Below, piece by piece: positions 8 through 33,131 of a DNA stretch of 64,000 nt. The position numbers and the translations under genes are program-made. The number at the start of each line of letters is the position of its first letter. Position 1 is the first letter of the stretch. Location of the stretch: assembly GCA_038153405.1 (NCBI GenBank), contig JAYOYH010000007.1:1-64000 (forward strand). Reading direction: 5' to 3'. The notes under the pieces were generated by a model. The model was not told the origin of the DNA. It did not search any database and saw only the letters and a program-made list of their open reading frames with translations. The DNA comes from Gemmatimonadota bacterium. Lineage in GTDB: Bacteria > Latescibacterota > UBA2968 > UBA8231.

Positions 8-1090
8 GTGAAAAAGCCGGTGAATACATACGCAGCGCAGGGACGTGGGAAGCGAGTTAATCTGCCGAATGCCGAGGTCGGGCCGGGTTGTCCCATATAC
101 GTTATAGCAGAAATAGGCGGTAATTTTAGCACCTTTGATGAGGGTAAAGCACTCGTTGATGCGGCGGTAGAGGCTGGTTCGAATGCCGTAAAAATTCAGA
201 CGTATAAGGCACATACTGTTTCGAGTCGCAAGGCGATGTTTTCTGCTGACGGCATGGCGTTTACTGGAGATGCCTCCCAGTTCGAGATGTTTGTCCAATA
301 TCAGATTGACGATGGGGTGCAGCAGGAGATCTATGCTTATGCCCGTGAACGCGGAATCGTGCTGTTTTCCACGCCCGGTCACCAGACCGATGTCGATTTG
401 CTTGAGACGTTGGGAAACAGCATTTATAAGATCGGTTCGGACGATGCGGTCAATTTGCCCCTGCTGCGCGATGTCGCTCAACTGAAAAAACCCATCCTGC
501 TTTCAACCGGTATGTGCACGATGCGCGAGGTCGGACTGGCGGTGGATGCCGTCCTCAGCCAGGGCAATGATCAACTGATATTGCTGCACTGCGTAACCAA
601 TTATCCAGCAGAGCCCATCAGTGTAAACCTGTTGTCTATGAACGCGTTACAGGCTGAATTCGGTTTGCCTACGGGTTATTCCGACCACGTATTGGGCAAT
701 GAAATATGTCTGGCGGCGGCGGCGCTGGGCGCCTGCGTATTGGAAAAGCACTTCACGCTAGACAAAGCGGCTGATGGCCCGGACCATGCGCTCTCGGCTA
801 CCCCTGAAGAATGGACGCAACTCGTCGAGGGGGTGAGGAAAATTGAATTGGCCTTGGGGGATGGGGTCAAACGGCCGGCGGCTTCCGAAAAGACCACACG
901 CGTTAATAATCGCAAGAGCTTAGTATGCGTGCGCTCTGTTGCTGCAGGACAGCCCATAGAAGCAACGGCCGTCGACATAAAGCGACCTGGCTATGGTATC
1001 CCTCCCTGGGATTACGAGAATGTTATTGGCAAAGTGGCGCGCTGTGATATAGCTGAAGACGAAGTGATAACGTGGGATATGATCGGTTGA
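8..1090 (+). CDS. neuB: N-acetylneuraminate/nonulosonic acid synthase family protein (NeuB/PseI/LegI/SpsE) with C-terminal SAF domain
   Basis: Motifs IAEIGGN, AVKIQT, YKIGS, ILLSTGM, LLHCVTNYP, GYSDH, LEKHFTLD..GPDH and C-terminal RKS..KRPG.GI. The frame is open to the window edge, so the start is uncertain. Confidence 0.92.
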   Translation: MKKPVNTYAAQGRGKRVNLPNAEVGPGCPIYVIAEIGGNFSTFDEGKALVDAAVEAGSNAVKIQTYKAHTVSSRKAMFSADGMAFTGDASQFEMFVQYQIDDGVQQEIYAYARERGIVLFSTPGHQTDVDLLETLGNSIYKIGSDDAVNLPLLRDVAQLKKPILLSTGMCTMREVGLAVDAVLSQGNDQLILLHCVTNYPAEPISVNLLSMNALQAEFGLPTGYSDHVLGNEICLAAAALGACVLEKHFTLDKAADGPDHALSATPEEWTQLVEGVRKIELALGDGVKRPAASEKTTRVNNRKSLVCVRSVAAGQPIEATAVDIKRPGYGIPPWDYENVIGKVARCDIAEDEVITWDMIG

Positions 1091-1788
1091 TCGGCATCGT
1101 TTTACAGGCGCGGATGGGGTCGACCCGTTTGCCGGGAAAAATGCTCATGGAACTATGTGGGCACAGTGTCCTGTGGCACAATATGGAGCGCTTGCGTCGT
1201 GTTAAACGGGCGGATGAGCTTGTGGTGGCGGTGCCCGATGGGAAGGCAGACGATCCGCTTGTTGCCCATTGCAAAGCGTCGGGCTGGGCGGTATTCCGCG
1301 GGAGTGAAGAGGATGTATTGGGGCGGTATTTCGCCTGTGCCGAAGCCTGGGGATTTCAGCACGTAGTGCGCGCTACGGGAGATTGCCCCCTAGTCGATCC
1401 GGAAGTCGTAGACGCGATGATCGAACTGCATATGCACGAAGGGGCTGATTATTCGAGCAGCAAGGATGAAGTGGGATGCCGCGTGCCCAATGGTACAGGG
1501 TTGGAGATGTTTTCATTCGAGGCGCTTCGGCGTGCGCACGAGGAGGGCAAGGCGCACAATCACCGCGAGCACATAAACGAGTACATCATGGAAAACCGGG
1601 CAGATTTTCGCATTGCTGCCTATTGTGAACCCTCCGAAAAGCGCTGTCCCGATCTCGATTTGACGGTGGATACGATAGAGGATTTTCTCTTTGTAAAAGG
1701 GATCATAGAGGCATTTGATGGAGATCACGATCGCCTGACGACGGAGGCACTTATTGCCCACTGGTCTACAGCGCGGGTGTCCTCGTGA
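1072..1788 (+). CDS. SpsF-like cytidylyltransferase (CTP_transf_3 family)
   Basis: QARMGSTRLPGK, FRGSEEDVLGRY, RATGDCP and REH motifs. An alternative TTG start at 1087 overlaps the neuB stop. Confidence 0.85.
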   Translation: MGYDRLIGIVLQARMGSTRLPGKMLMELCGHSVLWHNMERLRRVKRADELVVAVPDGKADDPLVAHCKASGWAVFRGSEEDVLGRYFACAEAWGFQHVVRATGDCPLVDPEVVDAMIELHMHEGADYSSSKDEVGCRVPNGTGLEMFSFEALRRAHEEGKAHNHREHINEYIMENRADFRIAAYCEPSEKRCPDLDLTVDTIEDFLFVKGIIEAFDGDHDRLTTEALIAHWSTARVSS

Positions 1789-2834
1789 GATGTGCGATTT
1801 ACACCTATGGTGGCCACGAACGCGGCATGGGACACATTTACCAGTCGCGTGCAATTGCCCAGGCTCTATCATGCAACGGCTCTGAGGTGCGCTTTATCGT
1901 TCCCGATGTGCCAGAGGGCGTCGCCAAACTGCGCCAATGGGGGATGGATGTCCGTGAAATCCCCCATAGTATTCCCGATGGGGAAAAGATTGCCCATATA
2001 GACGCGGTCTTGGGGGTATGGTCCCCTGATGTCGTGATCGTCGATATACTTGAAAGCTCCCCGGAACTGATGGCCTACATGGCGCGTATTTCCAGCGCGC
2101 TGATTAGCTTGGATGATATTGGGGAAGGGCGCATATACGCCGATGTATTGGTCAATGTCATACATCATCCCAAGCGGCCCGAAGGAGCGACCTACCAAGA
2201 GGTAAACGACCTAAACTACGTAGTGCTGCGCCCAGAGTTTGAGCTAGTCTGCCGTGCTGACAAACAGATACCAGAGCGAGGGACGAAACTACTCGTAAGT
2301 CAAGGTGGAAGCGATACTTTTGGCGGGGTTGTTGAGCTGGCTAAGGCACTGCAGGTACTGCCCGAATGCGTCGATATCCACCTTGTTCTAGGGTCAGCCT
2401 TTCGCCATGAAGAGACCCTTTCTGAAGTCATCCGACAGAGCAAGCGGCGCTTTGTATTAGAGCGGGATGTGCAGGATATGGCTGGCCTGATGCAGAAGAT
2501 GGATCTAGCTATAACGGGTGGAGGGAAAACCCTCTTTGAACTGGCCGCGGTCGGGGTGCCGATAGTCGCCGTGACAGAAGAGCCGCGCGAGGTGGAGACC
2601 ATGAATATTTTGGCACGCCATGTGCTCTGTGAGAATATGGGTTGGCGTCGCCAGATTGGGGCAGATCGAATCGCACAAATGGTCGATTCTCTCCTCCGAG
2701 ATCGAGAGCGCCGTCTCGCAATGAGTCAATCGGGTAAAAAGGCAGTTGATGGGTGCGGTGCGTGGCGCACGGCCGAATTGATTGCCCAAACCGTATCTGA
2801 AAAGAGAGTTGCTGTCCGTGAACGTACGCTTTGA
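1785..2834 (+). CDS. PseG/SpsG family UDP-sugar hydrolase / GT28-like GT-B protein
   Basis: GMGH motif, SQGGSD, DLAITGGGKTLFELAAVGVP, VDGCGAWR; GTGA overlap with the upstream gene. Confidence 0.8.
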   Translation: MRCAIYTYGGHERGMGHIYQSRAIAQALSCNGSEVRFIVPDVPEGVAKLRQWGMDVREIPHSIPDGEKIAHIDAVLGVWSPDVVIVDILESSPELMAYMARISSALISLDDIGEGRIYADVLVNVIHHPKRPEGATYQEVNDLNYVVLRPEFELVCRADKQIPERGTKLLVSQGGSDTFGGVVELAKALQVLPECVDIHLVLGSAFRHEETLSEVIRQSKRRFVLERDVQDMAGLMQKMDLAITGGGKTLFELAAVGVPIVAVTEEPREVETMNILARHVLCENMGWRRQIGADRIAQMVDSLLRDRERRLAMSQSGKKAVDGCGAWRTAELIAQTVSEKRVAVRERTL

Positions 2835-3471
2835 GCGCGCCCTCTTTGCCGGGGCGCATTTAGACGATGTTGAATTTGGTTGTGGGGCATCGGTTGCGGG
2901 GTGGGCTGAGTCGGGGTGCGATATCCGCTTTTTAACGCTTACCCAAAAGAACCGCAATGCGGCTGGCGAAGTGCAGCTAGTGCGCGATGTAGAAGAGCCG
3001 ATGCAGGCTGCGCGTGTGCTTGGCGTGCCTGACGAATGCGTATGGATAGAGGACTTGGACGGCCAAATTTTGCAGTATCAAGCACAAGCCGTGCGTGAAG
3101 TGTTGTTGCGAGTGCGCCGCGAGTTTGACCCAGAAATAGTCTTTGTTCCAGCCGCAGATGACATCCACCAGGACCATCGAGTCGTTTACGAAGAGGCGAT
3201 GCGGATCTTTCGCGAGCGAACCGTCGTGGGATTTGAGATAGTCCGTAGTTCCTTGGCCTTCCGGCCCAACCTTTTTGTGGAAGTCAATGCGGTAAATCTC
3301 CACAAGAAGGCGGAAGCCATACTGTGTTATAAAAGTCAGTTAGAACAAAGTGCGGGCTATTACTTTAACGCGGATATCATTGAGGGACAGGCTCGCTTTC
3401 GAGGTGGCCAATGTGGCAAAAAACTGGCCGAAGCATTTGAGGTTTACACCATGCAGTGGGATGGGCCATGA
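2818..3471 (+). CDS. PIG-L/LmbE family N-deacetylase
   Basis: AHLDD and HQDH metal motifs, KK..AI.CYKSQ, AEAF. Start set at GTG 2818. Confidence 0.85.
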   Translation: MNVRFERALFAGAHLDDVEFGCGASVAGWAESGCDIRFLTLTQKNRNAAGEVQLVRDVEEPMQAARVLGVPDECVWIEDLDGQILQYQAQAVREVLLRVRREFDPEIVFVPAADDIHQDHRVVYEEAMRIFRERTVVGFEIVRSSLAFRPNLFVEVNAVNLHKKAEAILCYKSQLEQSAGYYFNADIIEGQARFRGGQCGKKLAEAFEVYTMQWDGP

Positions 3472-4400
3472 CTTCCACTATTAGTTGCTTAGTTACAGGT
3501 GGGGCGGGATTTATCGGTTCCCATATCGTCGATGCCTTGGTGGCCGCAGGGCACCATGTTACCGTGGTAGATAATTTAAGCACCGGTGACCGCGCTCAGG
3601 TCAATTCGGGAGCTCGCTTTATTGAATGCGACATTTGCTCACCCGAACTTGCCCATGTATTTGCTGAGGGGGCTTTTGAGGTCGTCTATCACTTAGCGGC
3701 TCAAACCGACGTTATGACTTCTGTTGCGGACCCGGCAGATGACGCTCAAATCAATATTGTAGGTGGTATCGCGCTGTTAGAACTCTGTCGTAGGTACGGT
3801 GTGCGCAAAGTTATTTACTCCTCGTCGAGTGCCGTATTTGGCGAGCCCGACTACCTTCCGATGAACGAGGCCCATCCGATACGACCTCTGTGTCCGTATG
3901 CTGCTTCAAAGCACACATTTGAACACTATTTGTATTTGTACCATGCCATTCACGATCTCGATTATACGGTGCTCCGCTATGCCAACGCGTACGGACCGCG
4001 CCAAGACCCGCACCACGAAGGCGGCGTTGTAGCCATATTCGCCTATAAACTGCTGTCGGGCGAAGTGCCCATAATCTACGGGGATGGTCAGCAAACGCGC
4101 GATTTTGTGCACGTGAATGATTTAGTTCGAGCCAACCTCAGTTGTCTCAGGGCGGGTGATAATGCCTGCTATAACTTAGGGACGGGAATCGAAGTTACTG
4201 TCAATGAACTCACGGATCTGCTTTGCGAACTCACGGGAGCAGATAAAAACATAGAATACGCGGACGAACGAAGGGGCGAAATGCGGCGGCTGAGCCTGGA
4301 CAGCACCCAAGCGCGAGAGGTGTTGCAGTGGGTGCCTATGACGGGTTTACGTGATGGCGTTCAAAGTGTGGTCGATTTCTTTAAAGAGAGAAGTCTTTAA
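3468..4400 (+). CDS. NAD-dependent epimerase/dehydratase (UDP-glucose 4-epimerase-like)
   Basis: TGGAGFIGS, HLAAQ, YAASK, LRYANAYGPRQ, GDGQQTRDF; ATGA coupling at 3468. Confidence 0.9.
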   Translation: MTSTISCLVTGGAGFIGSHIVDALVAAGHHVTVVDNLSTGDRAQVNSGARFIECDICSPELAHVFAEGAFEVVYHLAAQTDVMTSVADPADDAQINIVGGIALLELCRRYGVRKVIYSSSSAVFGEPDYLPMNEAHPIRPLCPYAASKHTFEHYLYLYHAIHDLDYTVLRYANAYGPRQDPHHEGGVVAIFAYKLLSGEVPIIYGDGQQTRDFVHVNDLVRANLSCLRAGDNACYNLGTGIEVTVNELTDLLCELTGADKNIEYADERRGEMRRLSLDSTQAREVLQWVPMTGLRDGVQSVVDFFKERSL

Positions 4401-4401
4401 T

Positions 4402-5487
4402 ATGCCTAAAATAGAGTTCAAAAATTCAATCATTCAATACAAAAAAGCCGTTAAAAAATTACCAACCAATGATGCTGTACGTGCTATTTGTGCGCAAGAA
4501 GTCATTAGGGCATATCAATTCTTAGAAATAGTCTTCTGGGAATTAGAATGTGACCCAATGCCACTTTTGACTTCTGAAATTCAACGTCTAACATCTAGTT
4601 TTGAAGGCATTAGCTCGCATTATAATGAAAAATTCTATAGCCAGCGCGTCATGCATAGAGATAATAGTAAAAGTAGAATTGCCAATAGTCGTGCAAAATT
4701 AGATGTAAAGGAAGTAACGGGTCGCCTTTATAGCAGCCTATTCACTAAATTTGATGCTGCAAGCTATTTTAATGAGGCGACCGATTTGCTCAAGGAGCGA
4801 ATTGAAAGAAACGATGTTGGTTTTGAATGGTTTAAGGGAAAGAAAGGGTTAGATGCAGGCTGTGGTGGAGGAAGGTATACTGTTGCACTTTCCCAATTAG
4901 GGGCAAAAAAAATGACGGGGATAGACTATGGAAAAGACAATATAGCAGATGCAAAAAGTAGAATAAAAAAAGCTAAAGTAGATGGGGTAAATTTTCGGCG
5001 ATGTGATGTCTTAGAAATACCTTATAAAAATTCAACTTTTGATTTTGCATTTTCTAATGGCGTCCTCCACCATACGACAGATCCTCAAAAAGGTTTAGAA
5101 GAACTCTACCGCGTTATTAAGCCAAAAGGAACGCTTTGGATCTTTCTCTATGGGAAAAGCCTTTGGTGGGAAATGATGGAATTATTGCGTCTGGTAAGTT
5201 TGAAAGTACCGCGCGAGCTTACCCAAAATTTGATGCAGCTAATGGGATATGCACCCAACCGTATTTTTAAATTCCTAGATAGTTTGCATGTGCCGATTAT
5301 CGAATCATATTCGGCTATAGAAATGAAGTCAATGCTAAGAAAAGCTGGCTTTACTGATTTAGTTCAACTTAATCGAGGTGTTAGAACGCAGTTTTTTCGC
5401 GGTGTGAATGAAATATTAAAGGACGGTGGCCCTTATGCAAAAACTCGTTGGGGTGCTGGCGAACTGCGTTTCATTGCAAAAAAATAA
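4402..5487 (+). CDS. Class I SAM-dependent methyltransferase (low GC)
   Basis: LDAGCGGGRY, FDFAFSNGVLHH, RVIKPKG; ATG 1 nt after the upstream stop. Confidence 0.85.
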   Translation: MPKIEFKNSIIQYKKAVKKLPTNDAVRAICAQEVIRAYQFLEIVFWELECDPMPLLTSEIQRLTSSFEGISSHYNEKFYSQRVMHRDNSKSRIANSRAKLDVKEVTGRLYSSLFTKFDAASYFNEATDLLKERIERNDVGFEWFKGKKGLDAGCGGGRYTVALSQLGAKKMTGIDYGKDNIADAKSRIKKAKVDGVNFRRCDVLEIPYKNSTFDFAFSNGVLHHTTDPQKGLEELYRVIKPKGTLWIFLYGKSLWWEMMELLRLVSLKVPRELTQNLMQLMGYAPNRIFKFLDSLHVPIIESYSAIEMKSMLRKAGFTDLVQLNRGVRTQFFRGVNEILKDGGPYAKTRWGAGELRFIAKK

Positions 5488-5548
5488 AGACTCAATATAC
5501 CTTGCTATAAGGTAAAAAGCCGTGCAAGATAATTTTGAAGGAGTAGAA

Positions 5549-6922
5549 ATGGAATCGTATAAGCAATTGATATTGGAAGAAGGATACCGGGTGGGTGTTT
5601 GGGGATTGGGATATATCGGCCTCTCTACGGCGGCTTATATGGCACAGCGCGGGGTGCGCTGCGTGGGATGCGATGTCAACGCCGAACGCGTTGACTACGT
5701 CCAACGCGGTGAGCACTTCATGCCAGGTATGGACTATTGGTTGGGTTTCGACCTAAAGCCGATGGTTAACGATGGGCATATTCAGGCGACCTCCAACTGG
5801 CGCGACCTGATTCACCCCGATGTCTTGGTGCACTTTATCGGTGTACCAACTGAACGTGATAACGAACCTTATTACGAGTATTTAGAAGACGTAATAACGA
5901 AAATTGCCCATGTCAGCGTGTTGGATACCGATTATCCTCCTCTGATCATTATCGAATCGACGCTGACGCCTAATACTACCGATAAGATTGTTATTCCGAT
6001 GTTGGAAAAGGCGGGTTTGGTCGTCGGTGAAGATGTGTTACTGGGCGTTGCCCCGCGTCGCGACTGGTTTTTGGAATCCGACAAGAATCTTACTCACTTG
6101 GATCGAGTGTATGGAGGAGCGGATGAAGACACGGCTGACGTCATGCAGGGCGTTCTTGGCATTGTTTGCAACAAATTACACCGCGCCCAGAACCACCGTC
6201 ACGCCGAAATAGTGAAGAGCGTAGAGAATGCTTATCGCCATATGGAAATCACGCTAGCCAATCAATTGGCGCTCGCTTATCCGTCGCTTGATATGATTGA
6301 AGTCCTCGAACTTGTGGGCACGAAGTGGAACATCGGCACCTTTCGCCCAGGCATTGGCACCGGCGGGTATTGCATACCGTTGTCGAGTAAATATGTGTTA
6401 GCCGGTGCCGAGCAACCTGACGAGCTATCTTTGCTAAAAGAGACGATTCGCACGGACGACAATATGCCGCACGCCGTAGCCAATCTCTTTGCGCAAAGTG
6501 GGTGCCGTTCCGTTGGGGTGTTGGGCATTTCTTATAAAGGCGATATAAAAGTGCCTCGAGTAAGTCGCTCCGCGCAAATTGCTACACTCCTGAAAAAACA
6601 GGGAATCGAGGTAGGCATACACGACCCCTATTTTACCGCGGGTGAAATAGAGGGTATGTGGGGATTGGAATCGTTTGCTTTTCCCGCTGACCTGGATCGT
6701 TTTGACGGCCTACTTGTAGCAGCAGACCATCGTGAGTATTCGTCCCTGCACTGGGATCAGATCTTTAAGTCATTAACTAATTGTAAGCTAATAGTGGATA
6801 ACCTCGGAGTGTGGAAGGACGTAGAATTCGCACGCCATGCCATCCGCTATACTCAGCCCGGCGAAGCGAGTTGGCTACAAATACCCAAAAGTATTGTTGA
6901 AGTTTCCCAAGAAATAAATTAG
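5549..6922 (+). CDS. Nucleotide-sugar dehydrogenase (UDP-ManNAc/GlcNAc/GDP-mannose dehydrogenase family, WecC/WbpA-like)
   Basis: GLGYIG, IIESTL, AEIVKSVENAYR, GGYCIP (catalytic Cys), LGISYK; AAGGAG RBS before ATG 5549. Confidence 0.88.
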   Translation: MESYKQLILEEGYRVGVWGLGYIGLSTAAYMAQRGVRCVGCDVNAERVDYVQRGEHFMPGMDYWLGFDLKPMVNDGHIQATSNWRDLIHPDVLVHFIGVPTERDNEPYYEYLEDVITKIAHVSVLDTDYPPLIIIESTLTPNTTDKIVIPMLEKAGLVVGEDVLLGVAPRRDWFLESDKNLTHLDRVYGGADEDTADVMQGVLGIVCNKLHRAQNHRHAEIVKSVENAYRHMEITLANQLALAYPSLDMIEVLELVGTKWNIGTFRPGIGTGGYCIPLSSKYVLAGAEQPDELSLLKETIRTDDNMPHAVANLFAQSGCRSVGVLGISYKGDIKVPRVSRSAQIATLLKKQGIEVGIHDPYFTAGEIEGMWGLESFAFPADLDRFDGLLVAADHREYSSLHWDQIFKSLTNCKLIVDNLGVWKDVEFARHAIRYTQPGEASWLQIPKSIVEVSQEIN

Positions 6923-6960
6923 GGTGAATGCAACTTTTCTTAGGAGAATATGAGGGAAGT

Positions 6961-7812
6961 ATGCTATACCTCAAAATCAAGTCGATAGGCATAGCGATTT
7001 ATATTTTATTGATAGAAATATGGACAATAGCTACAAGGGCTCTATACAAAAAAAAACAGGTACTTAGTTCAGAAGATTTGGCCGCTGCAAAAAAGCTACG
7101 CGATGACGGATATGTAGTAATACCGGGATATTATGATTCTTCAAAAGTAGAAAGTCTATCTGAAGTCATTGATAAATATATGAAAGACGGACAAGGCGAT
7201 TTTGATCATATAAATAGAGTCTCCTATTATAGATGCCCGAGAGCGTTGGCACGTTGGGACGGCGGAGTCTTCCGTCTATTCGGTGCTGAGGCAATCCACC
7301 ATTTGATAAACTCGTATCGTAATGATAAAAGACTAAAGTCTATTGTCGAAGAAGCCTTCTCTGTCCCCATGTCATGCGATATAACCATGGTTCAAGAAAA
7401 CTTGCCAATAGGAGCCGAAACAAGAGGTTTTCACATAGATATGTATGCTCCGTTAGAATGTAAAGCCTTTCTATTTTTGACAGACGTTAAAAAGAATGAG
7501 GATGGGCCATATTCGCTAGTTCGGAGCTCTCATAGAAAGTTCTGGTGGAGGTTAGGTAATTTTATCTCCCGCAGTTTAAGGGGGACTGAACCGGTAACGT
7601 CAGTCGACAACCTTAGTGCTGTGTTTGAAAAAGATGTAGTAAAACTACTACTTGATAAAGGTACTGTCGTTATTTCATGCCAGCAGGCAATACATCGGGG
7701 ATGGAAACATACGACCGGACGCCGAATCGCTATAGTAAACTACTACTATGCGCACTTGTATGGGCAAAATTTCAATAAAAATATTGAAAAACGTTTAGGT
7801 TATAACTACTAA
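6961..7812 (+). CDS. PhyH-family Fe(II)/2-oxoglutarate dioxygenase-like protein (low GC)
   Basis: LRDDGYVVI, FHID (HxD), FLFLTDV..DGP...SH, IHRG...R; GAGG RBS before 6961. Confidence 0.72.
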   Translation: MLYLKIKSIGIAIYILLIEIWTIATRALYKKKQVLSSEDLAAAKKLRDDGYVVIPGYYDSSKVESLSEVIDKYMKDGQGDFDHINRVSYYRCPRALARWDGGVFRLFGAEAIHHLINSYRNDKRLKSIVEEAFSVPMSCDITMVQENLPIGAETRGFHIDMYAPLECKAFLFLTDVKKNEDGPYSLVRSSHRKFWWRLGNFISRSLRGTEPVTSVDNLSAVFEKDVVKLLLDKGTVVISCQQAIHRGWKHTTGRRIAIVNYYYAHLYGQNFNKNIEKRLGYNY

Positions 7813-7815
7813 AAA

Positions 7816-8835
7816 ATGACAAAATACCTTCAAATTTACCGGAACGCAGTTTCCACTTTGGAGCGTGAGACACGGGCTAATATAGATCGTTTAGTTAGTG
7901 ATTTTGAAGCTTATTTTGATATTGATGGTAAAATGAATGAAAGGGTCGCCCTGTATCGTACGTGTAATGTTTGTACGGGTGATGAAAAGATTCCATTCTT
8001 AGGCCCAAATCCATACACATATGTTGAGTGCGCTACATGTGGTTTCCGGTATATGGATCCAATAATTGACCCACAAAAAACTACAATTCTCAGGGATGGT
8101 ATATCAAAATTACGTGAGACTGATATAAAAAACCCAAAGTTAGAAAAGCGTCATCAAAAGATGACGCAGCAGGTTCGAGAGATTATAGCCCATCACAAAG
8201 GAGGCAATTTTCTCGATATTGGTTGTGGATTAGGTCGCCATATGCAATTGGCTACTCCTTACTTTGACAGTCTCGAAGGAATCGAGCTTGACAAAATCTC
8301 GCGGAAATATTGTCAAGGAATTGGTTTGAAGGTTTATGGTGAGTCCTTAGAAAGGCTGAATTTACCTTCAAATAAGTATGATGTTATTCTATTAAATCAA
8401 GTTTTAGAACATTTAGTTGATCCTAAGAATTTATGTTTAGAAGTATTGCGGATTCTTCGGCCGGGAGGAATTTTTTATATAGATACACCGAACTTTGAAT
8501 CACTTTCGCTCCGTCTATTTAAGGAGAACTGTAGCGTAGTACAAGGAAGCAGCCATATTTCATTATTTACAGTAAAGACAGTTCGATCCTTGCTAGAACC
8601 CCTGGGGTTCGAAACCATATCTGCTCGGACTTATCAAACAGATCTTTTCCCTCTTGATATTTTTGCATTTAAATTTTTCAATAATAAATTTCACCATAGA
8701 AGAAACTTATTTATTCCACTTTATTTGGCTTTTTATAGAGTATTTCATGAGATATTTGAAGAAAAAGTATTTCGTAATCTGGGTACAAGTATGGGTTCCT
8801 ATATGCGTATTGTCGTTAAAAAAAAGCTTGAATAA
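7816..8835 (+). CDS. SAM-dependent methyltransferase with N-terminal Cys pairs (putative Zn site)
   Basis: CNVC...CATC, LDIGCGLG, VLEHLVDP, LRPGG...TPN. Confidence 0.85.
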   Translation: MTKYLQIYRNAVSTLERETRANIDRLVSDFEAYFDIDGKMNERVALYRTCNVCTGDEKIPFLGPNPYTYVECATCGFRYMDPIIDPQKTTILRDGISKLRETDIKNPKLEKRHQKMTQQVREIIAHHKGGNFLDIGCGLGRHMQLATPYFDSLEGIELDKISRKYCQGIGLKVYGESLERLNLPSNKYDVILLNQVLEHLVDPKNLCLEVLRILRPGGIFYIDTPNFESLSLRLFKENCSVVQGSSHISLFTVKTVRSLLEPLGFETISARTYQTDLFPLDIFAFKFFNNKFHHRRNLFIPLYLAFYRVFHEIFEEKVFRNLGTSMGSYMRIVVKKKLE

Positions 8836-8909
8836 ATGATATTGATGTCGTCGCTATAAAATATCTTATTTCTATTTAACCACGTTACTATGGCTTTTAG
8901 AATACTTTT

Positions 8910-25467: not shown

Positions 25468-27356
25468 GCACGGCGTGGATAGGTAGGGCTTTCGGCCTGA
25501 GTTTGGGAGTTTGGTTGGTCTACGGCCAGGCGCTGGGCGGTAGTTTTCACTACGACGACTTCCATTCGCTGGTATTCAATCCCCACCTGCGCGATTTGGG
25601 TAATATAGGGTCCTTCCTAATCGACCCATCCTTATTCTCGGTCGACCCCGACAAGGCGATGTACCGTCCGCTGGTATTGGTCAGCTATGCGCTCAATTAC
25701 GCCTGGGGCCAGTATAATCCCGCCGGCTATCTGCTCGTTAATGTATCGATCCACCTGGTCAATGTGCTGCTCGTTTGGGGCGTTGGGCGGCGGCTGGGGT
25801 TGAGTGAAAGTGGGGCGCTGTGGTCGGCCGTACTATTTTGCGTCCATCCATTGGTGGGCGAGCCGGTAAACTACGTCAGCAGCCGCTCGGAAAGCCTAGC
25901 CGTCGCAGGCCAGCTGGCCGCATTCTACTTCTACTTGGGTGACGGGCGAGACCGCTGGCAGTGGGCCAGCGGGGCGGCGCTGCTGTGCGCGCTGCTTTCC
26001 AAATCCATCGCCGCCGTGCTGCCGGCTGTGCTGCTGGCCTACGAAGTGCTATGGCGCAGGCAGGACATATCGTGGCGCCGCCACGCGCCCTATTGGTTGC
26101 TCACCGCTGCGTATATTGGGATAATTAGCGCCAATCGATTTTTGGGTCCTGCGCTGGCCAAGGCGCCGCGCGGCCTGTACGAGCAGTTGCTTACTCAAGG
26201 TAAGGCGCTGGTCTATTACGCTTATTTACTGGCTGAGCCGGTGCGCCTCAGCGTTGAGCATCCGTTTGGCGTGGCCGACCAATTGGGCACGGTGACCCTG
26301 TTGGCCTTGGCTGCGGTCGGCAGTTTGGTCGCTGTTGCGTTGGCTCAGGGCGATCGCCGCATGCGCTTTTTGCTGTGCTGGGGTGGGCTGTCGCTGCTGC
26401 CGACGCTGGTCGTACCGCTCAACGTGTTGGTCAACGAACACCGGCTTTACATGCTCGTCGCGGTCATGGCGATTGCCTTGGGTATGGGCTGGGAGCGGTG
26501 GGGGCGCGCCGTGCGGTGGAGCCTCTGTGCATGGGTGCTGGTCGCTGGTTTGCTTTCGCATCAGCGCATTGAGGTCTGGCGCGACGAGCTAAGTCTATGG
26601 CGGGATGCGGCAAATAAGGGGCCGCAGATGGTGCGGCCGCAGGTCTTTCTCGGCAATGCCTGGCGGGTGGCAGGAGATAGTGCCTCGGCGCGCTCGGCCT
26701 ACGAGCGCGCGCTAGAGCTCGATCCACTTCACCGTTCGGCGCGCACCAATTTGGCCAATCTCTTTCTCGAGGCCGCGCAGTCCGATCGCGTGCAGAGGCC
26801 GTCGCTGTTGGAGCGAGCAGAAGGGCACTATCGGCGGGTATTGGAACTTGAGCCGGGGTATCGCGAGGCCCTTACCAACTTGGGCAGCTTGTATATGCTG
26901 CGCGGAGAATGGGTGCCCGCTGCACACGTGCTCTCGGCCGCAGTAGAGCAGCATCCTTTCTACGCTGATGCCTATTTTAACTTGGGTCTGGTGCGCGTTG
27001 AACTCGGAGATTTCGCAGCGGCCGTCGAGCTGTTTAGACGTGCTGTGCAGTTGGAAGACGGGGTCGAAGTGTGGTATGAATTGGCCAATGCCCACGCGCG
27101 ACTGGGGCAGCTGGCCGAAGCGGCGGCGGCCTATCGGCAGGTGCTCGAGAGCGCGCGCCGCGATGAACGCGCCTTGTATAACTTGGCCGAAGTTTTGCTC
27201 GTGGCCGGTGAGCGAGCGGGTGCCGCTTCGGGTGATGTGAGAGGAGTCGCGATGTGGCGAGAAGGGCAGGAGGCATTGGAAGCGCTGCTCAAGGTTGATC
27301 CCGATCACGTGCGCGGAGCCCTGCGGCTGCGCCAGCTTCGCGAGCGCCTGCCGTGA
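25464..27356 (+). CDS. TMTC-like GT-C/TPR protein, paralog 6
   Basis: FHYDD, MYRPL, HPLVGEPVNYVSSRSE, PLNVLVNEHRLY; GTGA coupling with a GGAGG RBS. Confidence 0.82.
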   Translation: MSTAWIGRAFGLSLGVWLVYGQALGGSFHYDDFHSLVFNPHLRDLGNIGSFLIDPSLFSVDPDKAMYRPLVLVSYALNYAWGQYNPAGYLLVNVSIHLVNVLLVWGVGRRLGLSESGALWSAVLFCVHPLVGEPVNYVSSRSESLAVAGQLAAFYFYLGDGRDRWQWASGAALLCALLSKSIAAVLPAVLLAYEVLWRRQDISWRRHAPYWLLTAAYIGIISANRFLGPALAKAPRGLYEQLLTQGKALVYYAYLLAEPVRLSVEHPFGVADQLGTVTLLALAAVGSLVAVALAQGDRRMRFLLCWGGLSLLPTLVVPLNVLVNEHRLYMLVAVMAIALGMGWERWGRAVRWSLCAWVLVAGLLSHQRIEVWRDELSLWRDAANKGPQMVRPQVFLGNAWRVAGDSASARSAYERALELDPLHRSARTNLANLFLEAAQSDRVQRPSLLERAEGHYRRVLELEPGYREALTNLGSLYMLRGEWVPAAHVLSAAVEQHPFYADAYFNLGLVRVELGDFAAAVELFRRAVQLEDGVEVWYELANAHARLGQLAEAAAAYRQVLESARRDERALYNLAEVLLVAGERAGAASGDVRGVAMWREGQEALEALLKVDPDHVRGALRLRQLRERLP

Positions 27357-29344
27357 GGAGGCTGTACGGGGTGCTCATTGCGCACAGGAGCGCCTCAGCG
27401 CTCCTATTGGTAGTGTGCTCAGCGCTGGTCTTTATAAACGCGCTCGACAATGGCTTTCAATACGATGACCGCCATTCGATCGTAGAAAATCCCCACATCC
27501 GCGAGTTGGGCAATATCGGCGCGTTTTTTTCCGATCCTACCTTTTTTTCGCGCGATGCCGATAAGGCGATGTACCGCCCCCTGCTGCTGGTGACGCTGGC
27601 GCTAAATTACGCTTGGAGCGGCTACGAACCCTATTCCTATCACCTGGTCAGTTGGGCGCTGCATGCACTTGGCGGGCTGCTGGTATGGGGCATCTTACTG
27701 TGTGCGCATAGGCCGCCGTGCCTAGCCCTGTTGGGCGGACTGCTCTTTGTCGTGCATCCGCTGTGCAGCGAACCTGTTAACTACATTAGCTCGCGCTCTG
27801 AACTGCTCGCCGCGGTGGGAGCTCTGGCCGCACTTTGGCTCTATATGCGGAGTGCACAAACCAGTGTATCTTGGTCGCTGGCCCTTTCCCTGCTCTGCTT
27901 TGCCGGCGGGCTGCTCGCCAAATCGGTGGCCATTGTCGCGCCTGTGTGGCTAGTGGTCTGGGACGTGCAGCGAGGAGCGGGGTTGCGCTGGCGGCGCTAT
28001 CTGCCCTACGGCGTGGTCGCGCTGGGCTATCTCGCATTGGTGCGTCAGGCCCTCGCGCGCGCCGTGCTCAGCGAGCCGGTGCGCGCGCTCGACGTGCAGT
28101 TGGCCACGCAGGTCAAGGCGCTGGCCTATTACGTCTATCTGGCATGGGCGCCCATTCATCTCAGCGTTGATCATGCCTTCGCCGAGTCCGGACCGGGCGA
28201 TCCGCTGGTTTGGCTCGCGCTATTGGCCCTAATGTCGGGTGTTGTCCTCGCGCTGTGTAACCGGAGTGAATATCTGGGGCTAGTACTGGCGCTCAGCGCG
28301 CTGCTACCAACGCTTATTGTACCCCTCAACGTGCTGGTAAACGAGCACCGGCTCTACCTGCCCGTCGCCGGGTTGGCCATCGCGCTGACGGGTATGCGCG
28401 GGCTAGAAAGGGTGCCCGGTATGAGCTTGGGCGCGCCGCTGATGCTGTGTCTACTGTCGGCGATGACCCTACAGCGCAATGTCGATTGGCGCGACGAGTT
28501 CAGCCTGTGGAGTGCGGCTCACCGCACCAATCCTCGCTCTGTGCGCCCCCTGGTCTATATGGGCAATGCTGCGCGGGCAGATGGCAATGCTGACGGCGCG
28601 CGCACGGCTTATCGCAAGGCGCTCGATCTGGATCCGCACAACGCCGTTGCCCTGGCGGGCTTGGGTGGGGTTTTTATGGATGGAGGGCAAATGGCCCAGT
28701 CGATCGCGCTCTATGATCGCGCGCTGCAAGCGCAGCCGCAGATGACGGATTTGCACTACAGTTTGGCACGGGCGCTGCAGGAGGACGGTCGCTTGTTCGA
28801 GGCACGCGCGCACTACGCCGCCCTAGGCGAGGACAGCCCCCATCGCCCGATCGCGCTCAACAATATCGGCACGACGTTTGAATTAGAGGACGAGGTGGAC
28901 AGCGCGTTGACATACTATCGCCGGGCGGCAGCAGGGGGGGCTATCGACGGGCGCGGCAATCTCGAACGGTTGGTGGGGCGCTTGGTCGGCCAAGCTGAAC
29001 AAGCGGTAGAGGCCGGCGATTGGCGGCGCGTCGAGTGGGCCGCGCGCGCCGCACTGCGGGGCCATGATGGGCATATATACGCGCGTTTTTTCCTCAGCGT
29101 CAGTCTGCTGCAGCAGGGGCGTGGGGAAGAGAGCATCACCGAAAACGAGCGCTTGCTGCGCGCTCAACCCGATTTCGACGAAGGGTGGCTACAGCTGGCC
29201 AATGCCTACGAGACCGTTGGTCGGCCGGATAGGGCGCGTGCTGCCTATCAACAGCTCATCGATCGCGGGCAGCGTGTATCCATGCAAAAGCTGGCCCAGC
29301 AGCGTCTACAGCGCCTGCAAGGCCGCGTGGAAGGAACGCCATGA
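27353..29344 (+). CDS. TMTC-like GT-C/TPR protein, paralog 7
   Basis: FQYDD, MYRPL, HPLCSEPVNYISSRSE, PLNVLVNEHRLYLP, QRN..W; GTGA coupling. Confidence 0.82.
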   Translation: MRRLYGVLIAHRSASALLLVVCSALVFINALDNGFQYDDRHSIVENPHIRELGNIGAFFSDPTFFSRDADKAMYRPLLLVTLALNYAWSGYEPYSYHLVSWALHALGGLLVWGILLCAHRPPCLALLGGLLFVVHPLCSEPVNYISSRSELLAAVGALAALWLYMRSAQTSVSWSLALSLLCFAGGLLAKSVAIVAPVWLVVWDVQRGAGLRWRRYLPYGVVALGYLALVRQALARAVLSEPVRALDVQLATQVKALAYYVYLAWAPIHLSVDHAFAESGPGDPLVWLALLALMSGVVLALCNRSEYLGLVLALSALLPTLIVPLNVLVNEHRLYLPVAGLAIALTGMRGLERVPGMSLGAPLMLCLLSAMTLQRNVDWRDEFSLWSAAHRTNPRSVRPLVYMGNAARADGNADGARTAYRKALDLDPHNAVALAGLGGVFMDGGQMAQSIALYDRALQAQPQMTDLHYSLARALQEDGRLFEARAHYAALGEDSPHRPIALNNIGTTFELEDEVDSALTYYRRAAAGGAIDGRGNLERLVGRLVGQAEQAVEAGDWRRVEWAARAALRGHDGHIYARFFLSVSLLQQGRGEESITENERLLRAQPDFDEGWLQLANAYETVGRPDRARAAYQQLIDRGQRVSMQKLAQQRLQRLQGRVEGTP

Positions 29345-31212
29345 AGCGCAGTTGGATTTGGATTGTTGCGGCGTGTCTGCTGGTCTACGCCAATTCGTTT
29401 GAAAATAGCTTTCACTACGACGACGAGCACTCCGTTTACGACAATATCCACATTCGCGACTTGGGTCATATCGGTCGCTTTTTTACCGATCCTGCGACTT
29501 TTTCGGTCGACCACGACAAGGGCATGTATCGACCGCTGCTGTTGGTCAGCTATGCGCTCAACTACGCCGTTGGTGGTTATGAGGTGGGCGGTTACCACTT
29601 GGTCAATATCCTACTGCACGCAGCTAATGCCTGCCTGCTGTGGGCGCTGGTATGGGCGATGGGGGGCGGGCGCCGGGCCGCTCTGATGGCCGGTTTGCTC
29701 TTTGCCCTACACCCACTGGGCAGCGAGCCTGTAAACTACATCAGCTCGCGCTCAGAGAGCCTGGCCGCGCTCTTCTACCTAGGCGGGCTGTGGTCCTTTG
29801 TAATGGCCTCTCAGAGGGAAGATCGCGCCTATCGAGTGTTTTCCTGGTGCTGTTTGCTGTGCGGGCTCTTGAGCAAGTCGAGCGCCATTACTTTACCCGC
29901 CGTGCTCCTGCTGTATGAAATACTCGTCCTTCGAGGCAAAGGGGGCTGGCGTTTGGGGCGCGATGTGCTGCGGCGCCACGGGCCCTATTGGATTGCGGTG
30001 TTCGGCTATATCCTAATTATTGTGGCCAACCGCTTTTTAACTACTTCGCTGTCCAAGCGCGTGCGTGGGATGGACGAGCAGCTACCGACGCAGATCAAGG
30101 CGCTGGCCTACTACGCCAAGTTGTTGGTCTGGCCTCATGGGTTGAACGTGGAGCACCAATTCGCCGTTTCAACCGGGGCTGACGCGGCCGTATGGCCGGC
30201 GGCGCTGCTGTTGGCCACAGTTGCCCTGGGCCTGCTGTGGCTGCAGCGCAAAAACATGCGGGCCCTGCTGTTTTTCAACAGTTGGGCCTTGGTCGCGCTC
30301 CTTCCGGTAGTCGTTATGCCTCTCAATGTGCTAGTCAACGAGCGCCGCCTCTATTTACCCGCTGCCGCTTTCTGTGCGGCGCTGGCCCTTCTGCTGCACC
30401 GGCCTGCCATGCGCCGGTATACACTAACGATTGGCGGTGCCGTGCTGGTAGTCTATGCCGCCCTAACCTGGCAGCGCAATGCGGCTTGGAAAAATGACTT
30501 TACTCTGTGGGAAGATGCCGTATCCAAGGCGCCGCAGATGCCGCGCGTCCACGTGTATATGGGGAATGCCCACAAAGATGCTGCGTTTTTTCAACGGGCA
30601 GGTAGCTCGCAGGCCAACGCGCACTGGGATCAGGCCCGTGCGGCCTACCGCCGCGCCCTCGAACTGCAGCCCAGCGGCGAACTGGCCCTGCGCGCCTTAA
30701 ACAATTTGGGTGCGGTGAGCTTTGTGCTGCGCGATATCGAGGGCGCCGAACGAGCCTATCTGCGCGCCGTCGAACTTAATCCGGACTTTGCCGATGCGTT
30801 GGTCAATCTGGGCACGGTCTATCACGAGCGCGGGCGCAATACCAGCGGTATCCAGGGAAGGGAACTGCTCGGTACGTCCGTTGAATACTATCGCCGCGCG
30901 CTTAAGCAGTTGCCCAACCACGCCGATGCATGGGCCAATCTGGGGTTGGCCTATTTCGATATGGGCGATTTGGAAGGGGCGCGGCGGGCCTATGACCGGG
31001 CCCTGTTTCTCAATCCGCGCAACGAGCGCCTAGTGCATAACTTCGGCAATTACTACGCCGCACTGGCGCAGCAATCCCAAGGAGCGGAACGGCAGCGCAA
31101 TCTATTAGAAGCCCGCAAGCAGTTTCAGCAGGCCCTGCGCCTCAATCCGGCCTATAATGCTCCGCGCAGTGGGTTGCAATATATCGAAGAAGCCCTAAAG
31201 CAACGGCCATGA
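29341..31212 (+). CDS. TMTC-like GT-C/TPR protein, paralog 8
   Basis: FHYDD, MYRPL, HPLGSEPVNYISSRSE, PLNVLVNERRLYLP, QRNAAW; ATGA coupling. Confidence 0.82.
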   Translation: MKRSWIWIVAACLLVYANSFENSFHYDDEHSVYDNIHIRDLGHIGRFFTDPATFSVDHDKGMYRPLLLVSYALNYAVGGYEVGGYHLVNILLHAANACLLWALVWAMGGGRRAALMAGLLFALHPLGSEPVNYISSRSESLAALFYLGGLWSFVMASQREDRAYRVFSWCCLLCGLLSKSSAITLPAVLLLYEILVLRGKGGWRLGRDVLRRHGPYWIAVFGYILIIVANRFLTTSLSKRVRGMDEQLPTQIKALAYYAKLLVWPHGLNVEHQFAVSTGADAAVWPAALLLATVALGLLWLQRKNMRALLFFNSWALVALLPVVVMPLNVLVNERRLYLPAAAFCAALALLLHRPAMRRYTLTIGGAVLVVYAALTWQRNAAWKNDFTLWEDAVSKAPQMPRVHVYMGNAHKDAAFFQRAGSSQANAHWDQARAAYRRALELQPSGELALRALNNLGAVSFVLRDIEGAERAYLRAVELNPDFADALVNLGTVYHERGRNTSGIQGRELLGTSVEYYRRALKQLPNHADAWANLGLAYFDMGDLEGARRAYDRALFLNPRNERLVHNFGNYYAALAQQSQGAERQRNLLEARKQFQQALRLNPAYNAPRSGLQYIEEALKQRP

Positions 31213-33131
31213 AGGCGCAATATACCTCGGTGTTGAGCATTCTACTGCTGGCCTTGCTCGGTCACGTAAATAGCTTTCCCGGGGCCTTTCACTACGACGA
31301 TGCCCACTCCATTGTCGAGAACGCATCGATTCGCTCCTTTGCCCGCATCGCGGAGCTCTTCTTCGATCCCGCGCTGTTTTCCAGTGAAAAAGACATGGCC
31401 ATGTATCGGCCGCTGGTGGTGCTCAGCTATAGGGTCAACTACGCGTTAGGTGGTCTCGAGGCGGCAGGCTATATCGCCGTCAATCTGCTCTTGCACGCCT
31501 GCACAGCCGTTGTCGTGCTACTCCTACTGCAGCGCTGGTTGGCCAATGGCATCAATGCCTGGGCGCCGGCCGCCGTTTTTGCCCTGCACCCGGTGAATGG
31601 GCAGGTGGTCAACTATGTTAGCTCGCGTTCGGAAAGCATGGCTGCACTGGCCGTGTGCGCGGCGCTCTACTTTGTATTGGGCAACCGCGATCGGGCCGCC
31701 TGGTGCAGCTATGCGCTGGGTCTATTGGCCAAGTCGCAGGCCATCGTGCTGATGCCGCTGCTGCTAGTCGTGCAGTGGGGGCGCCGCCAATGGCCGACGC
31801 TGGTGCGCAGTGCTCTGCCGTTTGCCGCCATGTCTAGCGGGTATTTGGCACTCATCTACGCGAATGATTTCCTTCCGCACTCGCTGGCCCAGGATGTGCG
31901 GGCCCCCTTCGTTCAGGCCTATGCGCAGATCAAGGGGCTCGTCTATTACGTCTATCTATTTGCCTGGCCAGTGCCTTTGAGTATTGAGCATCCGCTGGAA
32001 GAATCGCAGCGGGTTGACGGAGCAGTCCTCTGCGCCGGCGCGGCGCTGTCCTCTGCGGTGTATTTGGTCTTGCGCACGCGCCATTGGCTGGGACGGGGAG
32101 TGCTGTTCTGGCTGGCGGCAATGAGTCTGACTAGCGTAGTGCCGCTCAACGTGGTAGTCAACGAACACCGACTCTATCTCGGCTCGGTTGGGCTATGTGC
32201 CCTACTGGCGGGGCTGCCCATGGGGCCCGGGCGCCGCATGGTGCGCCGTCTCGGCGTGGTCTACTTGCTCTTCCTTGCCGCTCTTGGGTGGCAGCGCAAT
32301 GCCGTATGGCAAGACGAGTATAGCCTGTGGAGCGATGCGGTAGACAAGGCGCCGAACTCATTTCGCGCTCTGAGCAATTTAGGTTTGGCCCAGCTCGAGC
32401 GCGGAGATCTGGAGGCGGCGCGCCAAACGCTGGAGCGCGCCCTCGATCTCAACCCGGAATACGGACGCACTTGGAGCAATATGGGCTTGGTCTACGAGGA
32501 GCTAGGCGCCTATGATAGAGCCGAGTCTGCCTATCGAAAGGCCGTTGCGCTGCGCCCCGATTGGACGGGATTTCGCCTCCAACTAGGGCGTCTGTACTTA
32601 GGATTGGGGCGCTATGGAGAGGCGATTGCCCTGCTGGCAGACGCTGCTGTGGGCGATGTGCACTCGGGGGCCGTGCACGCGCTGCTGGGGTTGGCCCATC
32701 AGCGTGCAGGGAGGATACAACTTGCTGTAGAGCAATATGATAAAGCAATAACATTAGGTAATTTATCAATTGAGTTATTCAATAATTTGGGGTTGGCCCG
32801 GCAGGATATTGGCGATTGGGATGGCGCGCGTCGAGCGTTTAGCCAGGCGCTAGAGCGGGCACCGGAAGATGGTCCGACTCACATCAACCTGCGCATGCTA
32901 GCATTGCGGCGATCGGGGCGGTCGCTGCTCGAGTGCTATGAGCAGCTGGTCGTGGAGTTCCCACGGCAGGCCGATCTGTGGCGCGCCTTGGCCAGCGAAT
33001 TGGCCGGCGTCGGCCGCCTTGGCGAGGCCATAGACGCCTGTCAGAAAGTGTTAGAGATCCATCCACAAGACCGCCGGGCGAGGGACAATATAATGCGCCT
33101 GCGGGCGCTGGATTCAACGCCTTCCGATTGA
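31209..33131 (+). CDS. TMTC-like GT-C/TPR protein, paralog 9
   Basis: FHYDD, MYRPL, HPVNGQVVNYVSSRSE, PLNVVVNEHRLY, QRNAVW; ATGA coupling. Confidence 0.82.
   Translation: MKAQYTSVLSILLLALLGHVNSFPGAFHYDDAHSIVENASIRSFARIAELFFDPALFSSEKDMAMYRPLVVLSYRVNYALGGLEAAGYIAVNLLLHACTAVVVLLLLQRWLANGINAWAPAAVFALHPVNGQVVNYVSSRSESMAALAVCAALYFVLGNRDRAAWCSYALGLLAKSQAIVLMPLLLVVQWGRRQWPTLVRSALPFAAMSSGYLALIYANDFLPHSLAQDVRAPFVQAYAQIKGLVYYVYLFAWPVPLSIEHPLEESQRVDGAVLCAGAALSSAVYLVLRTRHWLGRGVLFWLAAMSLTSVVPLNVVVNEHRLYLGSVGLCALLAGLPMGPGRRMVRRLGVVYLLFLAALGWQRNAVWQDEYSLWSDAVDKAPNSFRALSNLGLAQLERGDLEAARQTLERALDLNPEYGRTWSNMGLVYEELGAYDRAESAYRKAVALRPDWTGFRLQLGRLYLGLGRYGEAIALLADAAVGDVHSGAVHALLGLAHQRAGRIQLAVEQYDKAITLGNLSIELFNNLGLARQDIGDWDGARRAFSQALERAPEDGPTHINLRMLALRRSGRSLLECYEQLVVEFPRQADLWRALASELAGVGRLGEAIDACQKVLEIHPQDRRARDNIMRLRALDSTPSD

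Follow-up and report, generated by a model that had tools for sequence, protein, structure and literature searches.

What do nine tandem genes encoding proteins similar to the animal TMTC glycosyltransferases do behind a nonulosonate gene cluster of a bacterium, and do the two form a single system? These genes occur in a Latescibacterota genome (93% complete), in the first 64 kb of contig C7; this whole stretch of 64,000 nucleotides is called the window here. A sequence-only reading of the window had proposed a 33-kb operon dedicated to nonulosonate-containing glycoproteins, in which the TMTC-like array attaches or primes a glycan built by the upstream enzymes. We compared the locus with its counterparts in 76 genomes of one Latescibacterota family, 38 array-positive and 38 array-negative. 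What stands out is a conserved island in which nine TMTC-like enzymes are combined with secreted proteins of cadherin-like type and with predicted donors, and the nonulosonate genes are an ordinary, variable part of it. Judging from sequences and models, we give an even chance that the array O-glycosylates the secreted repeat proteins of the island from lipid-phosphate monosaccharides.

The array as part of a larger island

A tree was built from 126 membrane domains of 13 arrays (13 genomes, 8 genera) and five upstream regions. Nine clades followed gene position across the 8 genera with support of 0.90–1.0; G012 deviated at three positions, and the arrays of G011 and G018 were cut by contig ends. 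The slot between paralogs 2 and 3 held asnB or a GT4 gene in all 13 arrays, with GT4 in several other genera. In the window, the asnB gene, which the sequence-only reading had omitted, divides the array into 2 + 7. The array subfamily (best E value of 1e-114 or better) was found in 38/76 family genomes and in none of 92 other genomes of the phylum, and the split into array-positive and array-negative genomes recurred inside three genera. The profile search also detected distant TMTC-like genes (E value of 1e-53 or weaker) in 70 of 75 relatives. The notion that TMTC genes are absent from island-negative genomes was dropped, since only the array subfamily is missing there.

The same nine paralogs were present with or without NeuB. 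NeuB was found in 13 of the 38 array-positive genomes and in none of the 38 array-negative genomes, leaving 25 array-positive genomes without a NeuB match. The co-occurrence of neuB clusters and TMTC arrays, proposed as a check, thus failed in most array-bearing relatives. On the other hand, the view that the array belongs to a glycan locus held: of 14 genomes in which the upstream side was seen, 13 have a sugar-biosynthesis cluster immediately before the array, the exception being G076, where transposase and sulfatase-like genes intervene. From these sequences, the neuB cassette is likely a swappable module that the array does not require.

The window proved to be the tail of an island of 55–85 kb flanked by cysK and lepA; the unit is this larger island, about 85 kb, and not a 33-kb operon. 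In the source genome, contigs C61 and C46 share an exact 55-base overlap. The end of C46 shows 80% identity to the radical-SAM gene standing first in the neuB cassette of G045, a genome of another genus. The head of the island consists of two TMTC-like genes, cysK, a dockerin/FlgD-Ig protein of 2.2 kaa (thousand amino acids), a 1426-aa FlgD-Ig protein, and TPR and unknown envelope proteins. Its middle contains four AglJ/PpgS/ArnC-like GT2 genes with a flippase-like gene, GT4 genes, AsnB, a PMT_2-type GT-C gene, and two unassigned genes for multi-pass membrane proteins. A KpsS/Glyphos-like transferase, Wzx, the neuB cassette, the array, and lepA form the tail. The same frame with different middles was contiguous in G003, G013, G015, G033, G038, and G075, and reduced in G078. 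None of these seven end-to-end islands has neuB inside, which speaks against an operon dedicated to nonulosonate glycoproteins. G017 and G037 have lost the island wholly: cysK lies ca. 1 kb from lepA, and wza-wzz is retained. Because wza-wzz is kept where the whole island is lost, it was rejected as the export system of the island.

The two TMTC-like genes at the island head (L054:5139-9339, on C61) belong to the array subfamily. They lie between a JAB-domain gene and cysK, upstream of the genes for the two giant FlgD-Ig proteins, form clades of their own, and are also gone where the island is deleted. C46 further encodes a conserved 493-aa island protein without a family (L052:5816-7297), whose Atlas cluster is mostly Latescibacterota, with a MetA-pathway barrel and LpoB as weak leads. 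It is possibly, judging from sequence, an outer-membrane anchor for the giant proteins.

Two gene families of the island follow the presence of the array. The family of the cadherin-like 1426-aa protein was found in 37/38 array-positive and 0/38 array-negative genomes. The first GT2, similar to polyprenyl-phosphate sugar synthases, was found in 33/38 and 0/38, respectively, the five misses being fragmented assemblies (78–91% complete). Control FlgD-Ig proteins were present in 76/76 genomes, which excludes that all secreted FlgD-Ig proteins are lost with the island. In two genomes, G078 with a contiguous locus and G008 with a locus on two contigs (86% complete), the giants were lost and only paralog 8 was seen.

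Membrane domains, donor genes, and the candidate acceptor

The nine membrane domains share 31–46% pairwise identity, and all nine paralogs have TPR Pfam matches. We modelled paralog 8 (predicted local distance difference test, pLDDT, 94). Foldseek results for the full model were filled by TPR matches, and the fold comparison was made on residues 1–406. The best structure match of this predicted model was ArnT (5f15; Z 22.3, root-mean-square deviation 4.1, 325 aligned residues), followed by AglB (Z 21.8) and Pmt4 (Z 21.3); PglB was also among the top fold matches, and the score of ALG12 came close to that of Pmt4. With the membrane domain or its profile as the query, sequence searches of solved structures gave no match. 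ArnT (5ezm/5f15) is the template for the human TMTCs too, according to the available part of PMC7801869.

The TMTC motifs M1–M7 were taken from Table 4 of that paper. M1 (DD in the first outer loop) was present in all nine paralogs and in 123/126 homologs, the remaining three being gapped. M3 (RxD/E) occurs as RSE in eight paralogs and RSD in one. One Pro of M6 (PxxP) is retained in 8/9. In M7 (ERxxY), Glu and Tyr are correctly spaced in 9/9, Arg stands beside Glu in 4/9, and an invariant Arg follows one position later. Catalytic-loop residues were nearly identical across all nine clades. The paralogs are regarded here as TMTC-like in their presumed action and are not filed as members of GT105. 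The name ‘protein O-mannosyl-transferase’ of the Joint Genome Institute was carried by 6 of 120 homologs among the matches listed.

As for the donors, AglJ was the best NCBIfam match of all four GT2s of C46, each under the cut-off, and for one island GT2 ArnC ranked first among solved structures. The most conserved GT2 lies at C46:8339-9214. The flippase-like protein of C46 scored above its NCBIfam cut-off.

The 1426-aa giant (L052:817-5097) was modelled over residues 24–1030 (pLDDT 87). In the model, a cohesin at the N terminus (Z 14.9) is followed by eight beta-sandwich repeats; Pfam Cadherin_4/5 matches occur in distant homologs. Because the 2.2-kaa giant (L054:11410-17631) carries a dockerin and the other a predicted cohesin, the two may assemble with each other. 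The sequon D-S/T-[AILMVT] occurs 19 times in the 1426-aa giant compared with 6.5 ± 2.5 expected (observed/expected, O/E, 2.9), and its median O/E in 58 orthologs was 2.79, with 1.03 for the E control. Of the 17 sequons in the modelled part, 13 were kept in 84–100% of up to 61 homologs, and several conserved ones stand at the start of predicted strands. Sequon O/E was 1.34 in 84 C-terminal-domain proteins versus 0.94 in cytoplasmic-like proteins. A comparison of Wza/Wzz between island-positive and island-negative genomes was uninformative. The idea that the enrichment is structural gained no support: five distant bacterial cadherin-repeat proteins showed none (O/E 0–0.96), though four other distant matches (P0184, P0187, P0189, and P0190; FlgD-tailed, one named as KSB1) were enriched (O/E 1.55–2.13).

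Possible roles of the array

The account to which we give an even chance would run as follows. The nine fixed-order TMTC-like enzymes would be periplasm-facing protein O-glycosyltransferases. The conserved AglJ/PpgS/ArnC-like GT2s would load monosaccharides on polyprenyl phosphate, the flippase-like protein would turn them outward, and the paralogs would transfer single sugars to Ser/Thr residues on secreted proteins of Ig/cadherin-like type, with the giants at the island head as the most likely acceptors. Each paralog may serve a different site or domain, in the manner of animal TMTC2 and TMTC3, which put single mannoses on the B and G strands of cadherin domains (PMC13123603 and PMC11292533, available parts). 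The variable cassette would supply strain-specific outer sugars. In the source genome, CMP-nonulosonate would be used in the cytoplasm by the KpsS/Glyphos-like protein beside Wzx, and the nonulosonate, probably by way of Wzx, could end on island glycoproteins or on a surface polysaccharide. A more specific version, in which nine non-redundant enzymes each serve their own D-S/T sequons on cohesin/cadherin-repeat proteins and yield a glycosylated cohesin-dockerin coat with serotype-like swapped outer sugars, is put forward tentatively, as rather doubtful in all its parts together.

Several observations weigh against this account. Motif M2 (SHKSYRP) is altered: RP is kept in 9/9 and YRP in 8/9, an invariant Met replaces Ser, and HKS is absent. 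M4 (KE(T/Q)xxT) retains Lys in 9/9 paralogs, with Glu in none of them and in 21/126 homologs. At M5 (DW), an acidic residue in 8/9 is followed by His in 9/9, as in ArnT, this correspondence being judged by position and motif order and not by aligning a human sequence. DUF1736 gave no match in the nine membrane domains at E values up to 10 (most above 0.1 were filtered, and presence of the model in the library is assumed). With these three motifs altered and no DUF1736 match, the donor need not be mannose. The link of donor genes and giants to the window depends on joining C46 to C7 across ca. 2.5 kb of unassembled sequence, a join inferred from the comparison with G045. The counts over 76 related genomes come from kin that are not independent, and co-loss of neighbouring genes can be a single deletion. 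In G081 the giants are gone from the locus, but 12 TMTC matches and a paralog of the giant remain, and this weakens the dose argument that the array is reduced when the giants are lost; G034 and G018 also have 12 TMTC matches each, with only paralog-level matches to the giant. The repeats of the giant match dystroglycan and cadherins with modest scores (Z 9–10), and in Foldseek the protocadherins rank 4–7 behind non-cadherin Ig arrays at ranks 1–3. The sequon was depleted (O/E 0.50; families unmatched) in 72 secreted FlgD-Ig proteins of island-negative genomes, which favours an independent general system still acting there. In five matched ortholog pairs from island-positive and island-negative genomes, the numbers of sites did not differ (5 versus 4). 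D-S/T is the O-glycosylation motif of Bacteroidota, with the transferase unknown in that paper, and Porphyromonas gingivalis cargo of the type IX secretion system (T9SS) is likewise depleted in the sequon (PMC8729774, available part). Finally, a TMEM260-like (DUF2723) GT-C protein is encoded in 76/76 family genomes and could serve the sequons instead.

The last points lead to the alternative that the array extends a glycan: a TMEM260-like enzyme would prime D-S/T, and the nine paralogs would add sugars successively outside the membrane from lipid-phosphate donors. Besides its universal presence in the family, the TMEM260-like family occurs in Bacteroides thetaiotaomicron; the giants have more sequons than expected, and secreted proteins of island-negative genomes fewer; four polyprenyl-phosphate synthase-like GT2s lie in the island; and the fold scores of ArnT and ALG12, enzymes with non-protein acceptors, reach or nearly reach that of Pmt4. 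Successive additions fit poorly with catalytic loops that are nearly the same in nine clades and with a set of nine that stays constant whatever the sugar cassette. The long TPR tails suggest protein recognition, and the source genome has kept its sequons with only a weaker TMEM260-like match (E 3.7e-24; 93% complete). We regard extension as the main rival reading of the array, though an unlikely one. As a separate observation, the TMEM260-like profile matched only B. thetaiotaomicron among 14 controls, and by sequence this protein is a candidate for the Bacteroidota O-glycosylation transferase.

Of the earlier proposal that the array attaches or primes a glycan, priming is the best reading, whereas en-bloc attachment of a nonulosonate/uronate oligosaccharide built by the upstream genes is improbable, because a separate CMP-donor-type transferase and Wzx flank the cassette. 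It would agree with the unbroken junction between GT4 and paralog 1, with Wzx in the island, with STT3/AglB not being found in the source genome and Wzy_C giving no match in C46 or the array region, and with AglB and PglB among the top fold matches. NeuB is also confined to array-positive genomes and occurs in the island of G073. Yet most array-positive genomes have no NeuB match and the array is the same without it; characterised TMTCs move a single mannose from a lipid monophosphate (PMC11292533, available part); and seven Wzy_C/ligase-like proteins on other contigs could accept a glycan flipped by Wzx. More improbable still is an ArnT-like role, with lipid A or some glycolipid as the acceptor. 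ArnT and ArnC as top matches of the membrane domain and of one island GT2, and the acidic-His pair at M5, point that way, but human TMTCs also match ArnT best (PMC7801869), and nine TPR-bearing paralogs that collapse when the giants are lost fit protein acceptors better. A further possibility bears only on where the nonulosonate ends up and does not conflict with protein O-glycosylation by the array: the nonulosonate/uronate cassette may feed an O-antigen or capsule, made by Wzx together with Wzy-type enzymes encoded elsewhere and the downstream Wza/Wzz, and merely share a hypervariable slot with the array. We consider this conceivable but not the likelier outcome. The KpsS/Glyphos-like transferase and Wzx beside the cassette, wza-wzz 4 kb beyond the array, and a low GC3 with exchange between genera, as is typical of serotype loci, would suit it. 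Against it, wza-wzz stays where the island is lost, and the conserved sugar genes disappear with the array. The island is also not inherited as a Wzx/Wzy locus: Wzx lies inside, the Wzy_C matches are on other contigs, and wza-wzz persists without the island.

The available part of PMC7801869 mentions prokaryotic TMTC homologs only as uncharacterised BLAST hits, and we found no description of bacterial TMTC arrays or of this island in a literature search that left subscription papers and supplements largely outside. The island offers predicted donors, a candidate cadherin-like acceptor, and natural deletions, and therefore the function of a TMTC homolog could be tested by heterologous expression. 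If protein O-glycosylation by the array is true, animals did not invent the domain-specific modification of cadherin folds by TMTC enzymes, and the nine-enzyme set would be a model for site choice by TPR tails. The more specific version would link TMTC enzymes with acceptors of cadherin fold in non-animals and provide a first enzyme family for the D-S/T sequon of the FCB (Fibrobacterota–Chlorobiota–Bacteroidota) type.

Gene run, sugar cassette, and flanking genes

The sequence-only description of the run was largely accurate. The 24 genes at 8..33131 are all on the + strand, and with curated starts 20 of 23 junctions are overlaps or gaps of at most 30 bp, the largest gaps being 98, 74, and 61 bp. 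The window begins at the contig end, and the cluster therefore starts further upstream. The ATG at 14095 lies 48 codons 5′ of FHYDD in paralog 1, is conserved in G001 and G002, and is the sole start there in G002; candidate starts of orthologs elsewhere lie at a similar distance, mostly 31–45 codons. Because this conservation favours ATG 14095, the claimed overlap of GT4 and paralog 1 stands and is probably 23 nt. TTG 13921, the mechanical longest open reading frame (ORF) choice, was set aside in favour of ATG 14095, and the idea that the overlap is an ORF-calling artefact (start at 14179) was dropped after starts were compared across genomes.

Terminator-like matches numbered 16 in 1–20000 (shuffles 22.5 ± 4.5) and 26 in 20001–40000 (18.3 ± 3.8), near shuffle levels. 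Those on the + strand before 33131 are all within coding sequence, including a 5-bp stem at 14175–14192 inside paralog 1, in agreement with the claim of no terminator. Upstream of paralog 1, neither TTGACA nor a promoter-like match was found in 13/13 genomes, so that no independent promoter or terminator emerged at this junction. RNA data were uninformative: one metatranscriptome shared 0.06 of the words, and none of five short contigs placed on the sequence crosses the 14.0–14.2 kb junction. The 98-bp gap at 11038–11135 folds strongly (z −2.9; 2/200 shuffles as good) and is possibly a weak internal break. At 11125–11142, a strong AGGAGG is followed by an ATG with only a 5-codon frame, and the beta-propeller ORF (362 aa) uses a different frame, beginning at TTG 11136; a frameshift, an assembly error, or a short leader are possible explanations.

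The + strand run continues past the array into lepA-lepB-hemW-wza-wzz. TTGACA recurs within 110 nt of lepA in 17/24 loci (background 0.013 per 110 nt), and lepA probably has its own promoter because of this recurrence. Position 33131 is a sensible 3′ end of the run.

Table 1 Features of the window.
Feature	Position	Strand	Evidence or remark
NeuB-family nonulosonate synthase with SAF domain	8..1090	+	PF03102, E 1.5e-81
SpsF-like cytidylyltransferase, predicted CMP-nonulosonate synthetase	1072..1788	+	PF02348, 73.4 bits (cut-off 22.6)
PseG/SpsG-like UDP-sugar hydrolase	1785..2834	+	TIGR03590, 108.3 bits, under cut-off 153.55
PIG-L family de-N-acetylase	2818..3471	+	PF02585
GalE-like NDP-sugar epimerase	3468..4400	+	PF01370; TIGR01179, 196 bits, under cut-off
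Low-GC tailoring block: four methyltransferases, NDP-sugar dehydrogenase, ORF 6928-7812, FemAB/GNAT protein, beta-propeller protein	4402..12972	+	
NDP-sugar dehydrogenase	5549-6922	+	TIGR03026 above cut-off; GGYCIP motif; general NDP-sugar dehydrogenase model only
GT4 glycosyltransferase	12969..14117	+	PF00534
TMTC-like GT-C + TPR paralog 1	14095..15894	+	Probable start ATG 14095
TMTC-like paralog 2	15897..17675	+	
AsnB-family amidotransferase inside array	17688..19559	+	TIGR01536 above cut-off
TMTC-like paralog 3	19549..21417	+	
TMTC-like paralog 4	21423..23315	+	
TMTC-like paralog 5	23308..25467	+	
TMTC-like paralog 6	25464..27356	+	
TMTC-like paralog 7	27353..29344	+	
TMTC-like paralog 8	29341..31212	+	Modelled GT-C fold + TPRs; sole array gene seen before lepA in G078, G008
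TMTC-like paralog 9, last island gene	31209..33131	+	
TTGACA, predicted -35 element of lepA promoter, island 3′ end marker	33128..33133	+	Overlaps paralog 9 stop codon
lepA-lepB-hemW-wza-wzz, conserved flank	33211..39800	+	Retained when island lost; family matches and relatives’ loci

The earlier statement that NeuB, SpsF, and PseG/SpsG make a CMP-nonulosonate was upheld at the family level, with PF03102 and PF02348 above cut-off, and not at the level of a named product, as none reaches the pseudaminate (Pse) or neuraminate (Neu) equivalog cut-offs. NeuB scored 333.3 against 399.65 for NeuB_NnaB and 273.5 against 340.25 for PseI. No clear precursor dehydratase, aminotransferase, or acetyltransferase was found in the window or in C46 (ca. 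2.5 kb between C46 and C7 are unassembled, and the genome is 93% complete). For PF02719, the strongest genome-wide match (E 1e-19) was a GalE/LegB-like short-chain dehydrogenase/reductase under cut-offs, and the DegT homologs are located elsewhere, outside the cassette. Pfam and NCBIfam scans gave no match for ORF 6928-7812 (294 aa); by eye, it shows HxD and distal His motifs, which may be those of a PhyH-like dioxygenase. Mean GC content at third codon positions (GC3) is highest in the array (0.71), intermediate in neuB–galE (0.56), and lowest in the tailoring block (0.37). The GT4 gene stands directly 5′ of paralog 1 in the source genome and in G001, G003, and G073.

The first 7 kb of the window are 67–72% identical in DNA to the neuB cassette of G045. 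neuB was not found in six of seven congeners (73–94% complete), and the seventh carries, on another contig, a neuB cluster of a different kind. The neuB cassette in the island of G073 also differs (38% protein identity), and the array contig of that genome has a homolog of the KpsS-like gene. The G045 cassette is headed by two radical SAM-SPASM genes and WbqC (L048:7258-9998), which suggests that a cassette of this type makes an unusual nonulosonate derivative. The KpsS/Glyphos-like transferase and Wzx adjoin the cassette. The transferase was found in 4/76 family genomes, three of them with NeuB, and not in G045, which rules it out as a tight companion of neuB; a sequence search of solved structures with this protein gave no match.

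Beyond the flank, a TPR protein gene occurs with MotA/ExbB-like and small ExbD-sized genes (55336–58782), and an FG-GAP/ASPIC-UnbV gene faces a TPR gene (60605–63628).

Comparison with known systems

The cassette shares with the pseudaminate and legionaminate (Pse/Leg) pathways a row of NeuB-SAF synthase, cytidylyltransferase, and PseG-like hydrolase. It differs in scoring under the equivalog cut-offs, in having no clear PseB/LegB, PseC/LegC, or acetyltransferase, and in being accompanied by a PIG-L deacetylase and, in G045, by two radical SAM-SPASM enzymes and WbqC.

Surface-protein glycosylation loci, such as those of Tannerella forsythia and the archaeal agl genes, contain AglJ-like lipid-phosphate glycosyltransferases and have nonulosonate as an optional outer sugar. 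The island likewise combines abundant surface-protein genes with a variable sugar cluster, AglJ-like glycosyltransferases, and an optional nonulosonate. Unlike these S-layer loci, it has eleven TMTC-like and further GT-C-like enzymes with no AglB/STT3 found, and its acceptor candidates carry cohesin, dockerin, and cadherin-like modules. Surface-protein glycosylation with nonulosonate in T. forsythia is touched on in the available part of PMC8729774.

The same text describes the general O-glycosylation of Bacteroidota, in which D-S/T-[A/I/L/V/M/T] is the motif. Enrichment and conservation of this motif in secreted proteins with a T9SS-like C-terminal domain, and a conserved core plus species-specific outer glycan genes, are shared with the island. 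That system is genome-wide, whereas the island enzymes are lineage-restricted and lost as a block, with the TMEM260-like candidate present independently.

With metazoan TMTC1–4 (GT105), the island paralogs share a GT-C domain followed by TPRs, the DD, RxD/E, Lys, and E..Y motifs, and ArnT as the best template. In both systems several non-redundant paralogs occur, and the candidate acceptor combines cadherin-like repeats with conserved Ser/Thr residues in beta-strands. The island differs in its altered M2, M4, and M5 and in the absence of a DUF1736 match. Animals have four dispersed genes, whereas the bacterial island has nine tandem paralogs and two upstream, and these putative enzymes are encoded alongside predicted donor synthases and candidate acceptors.

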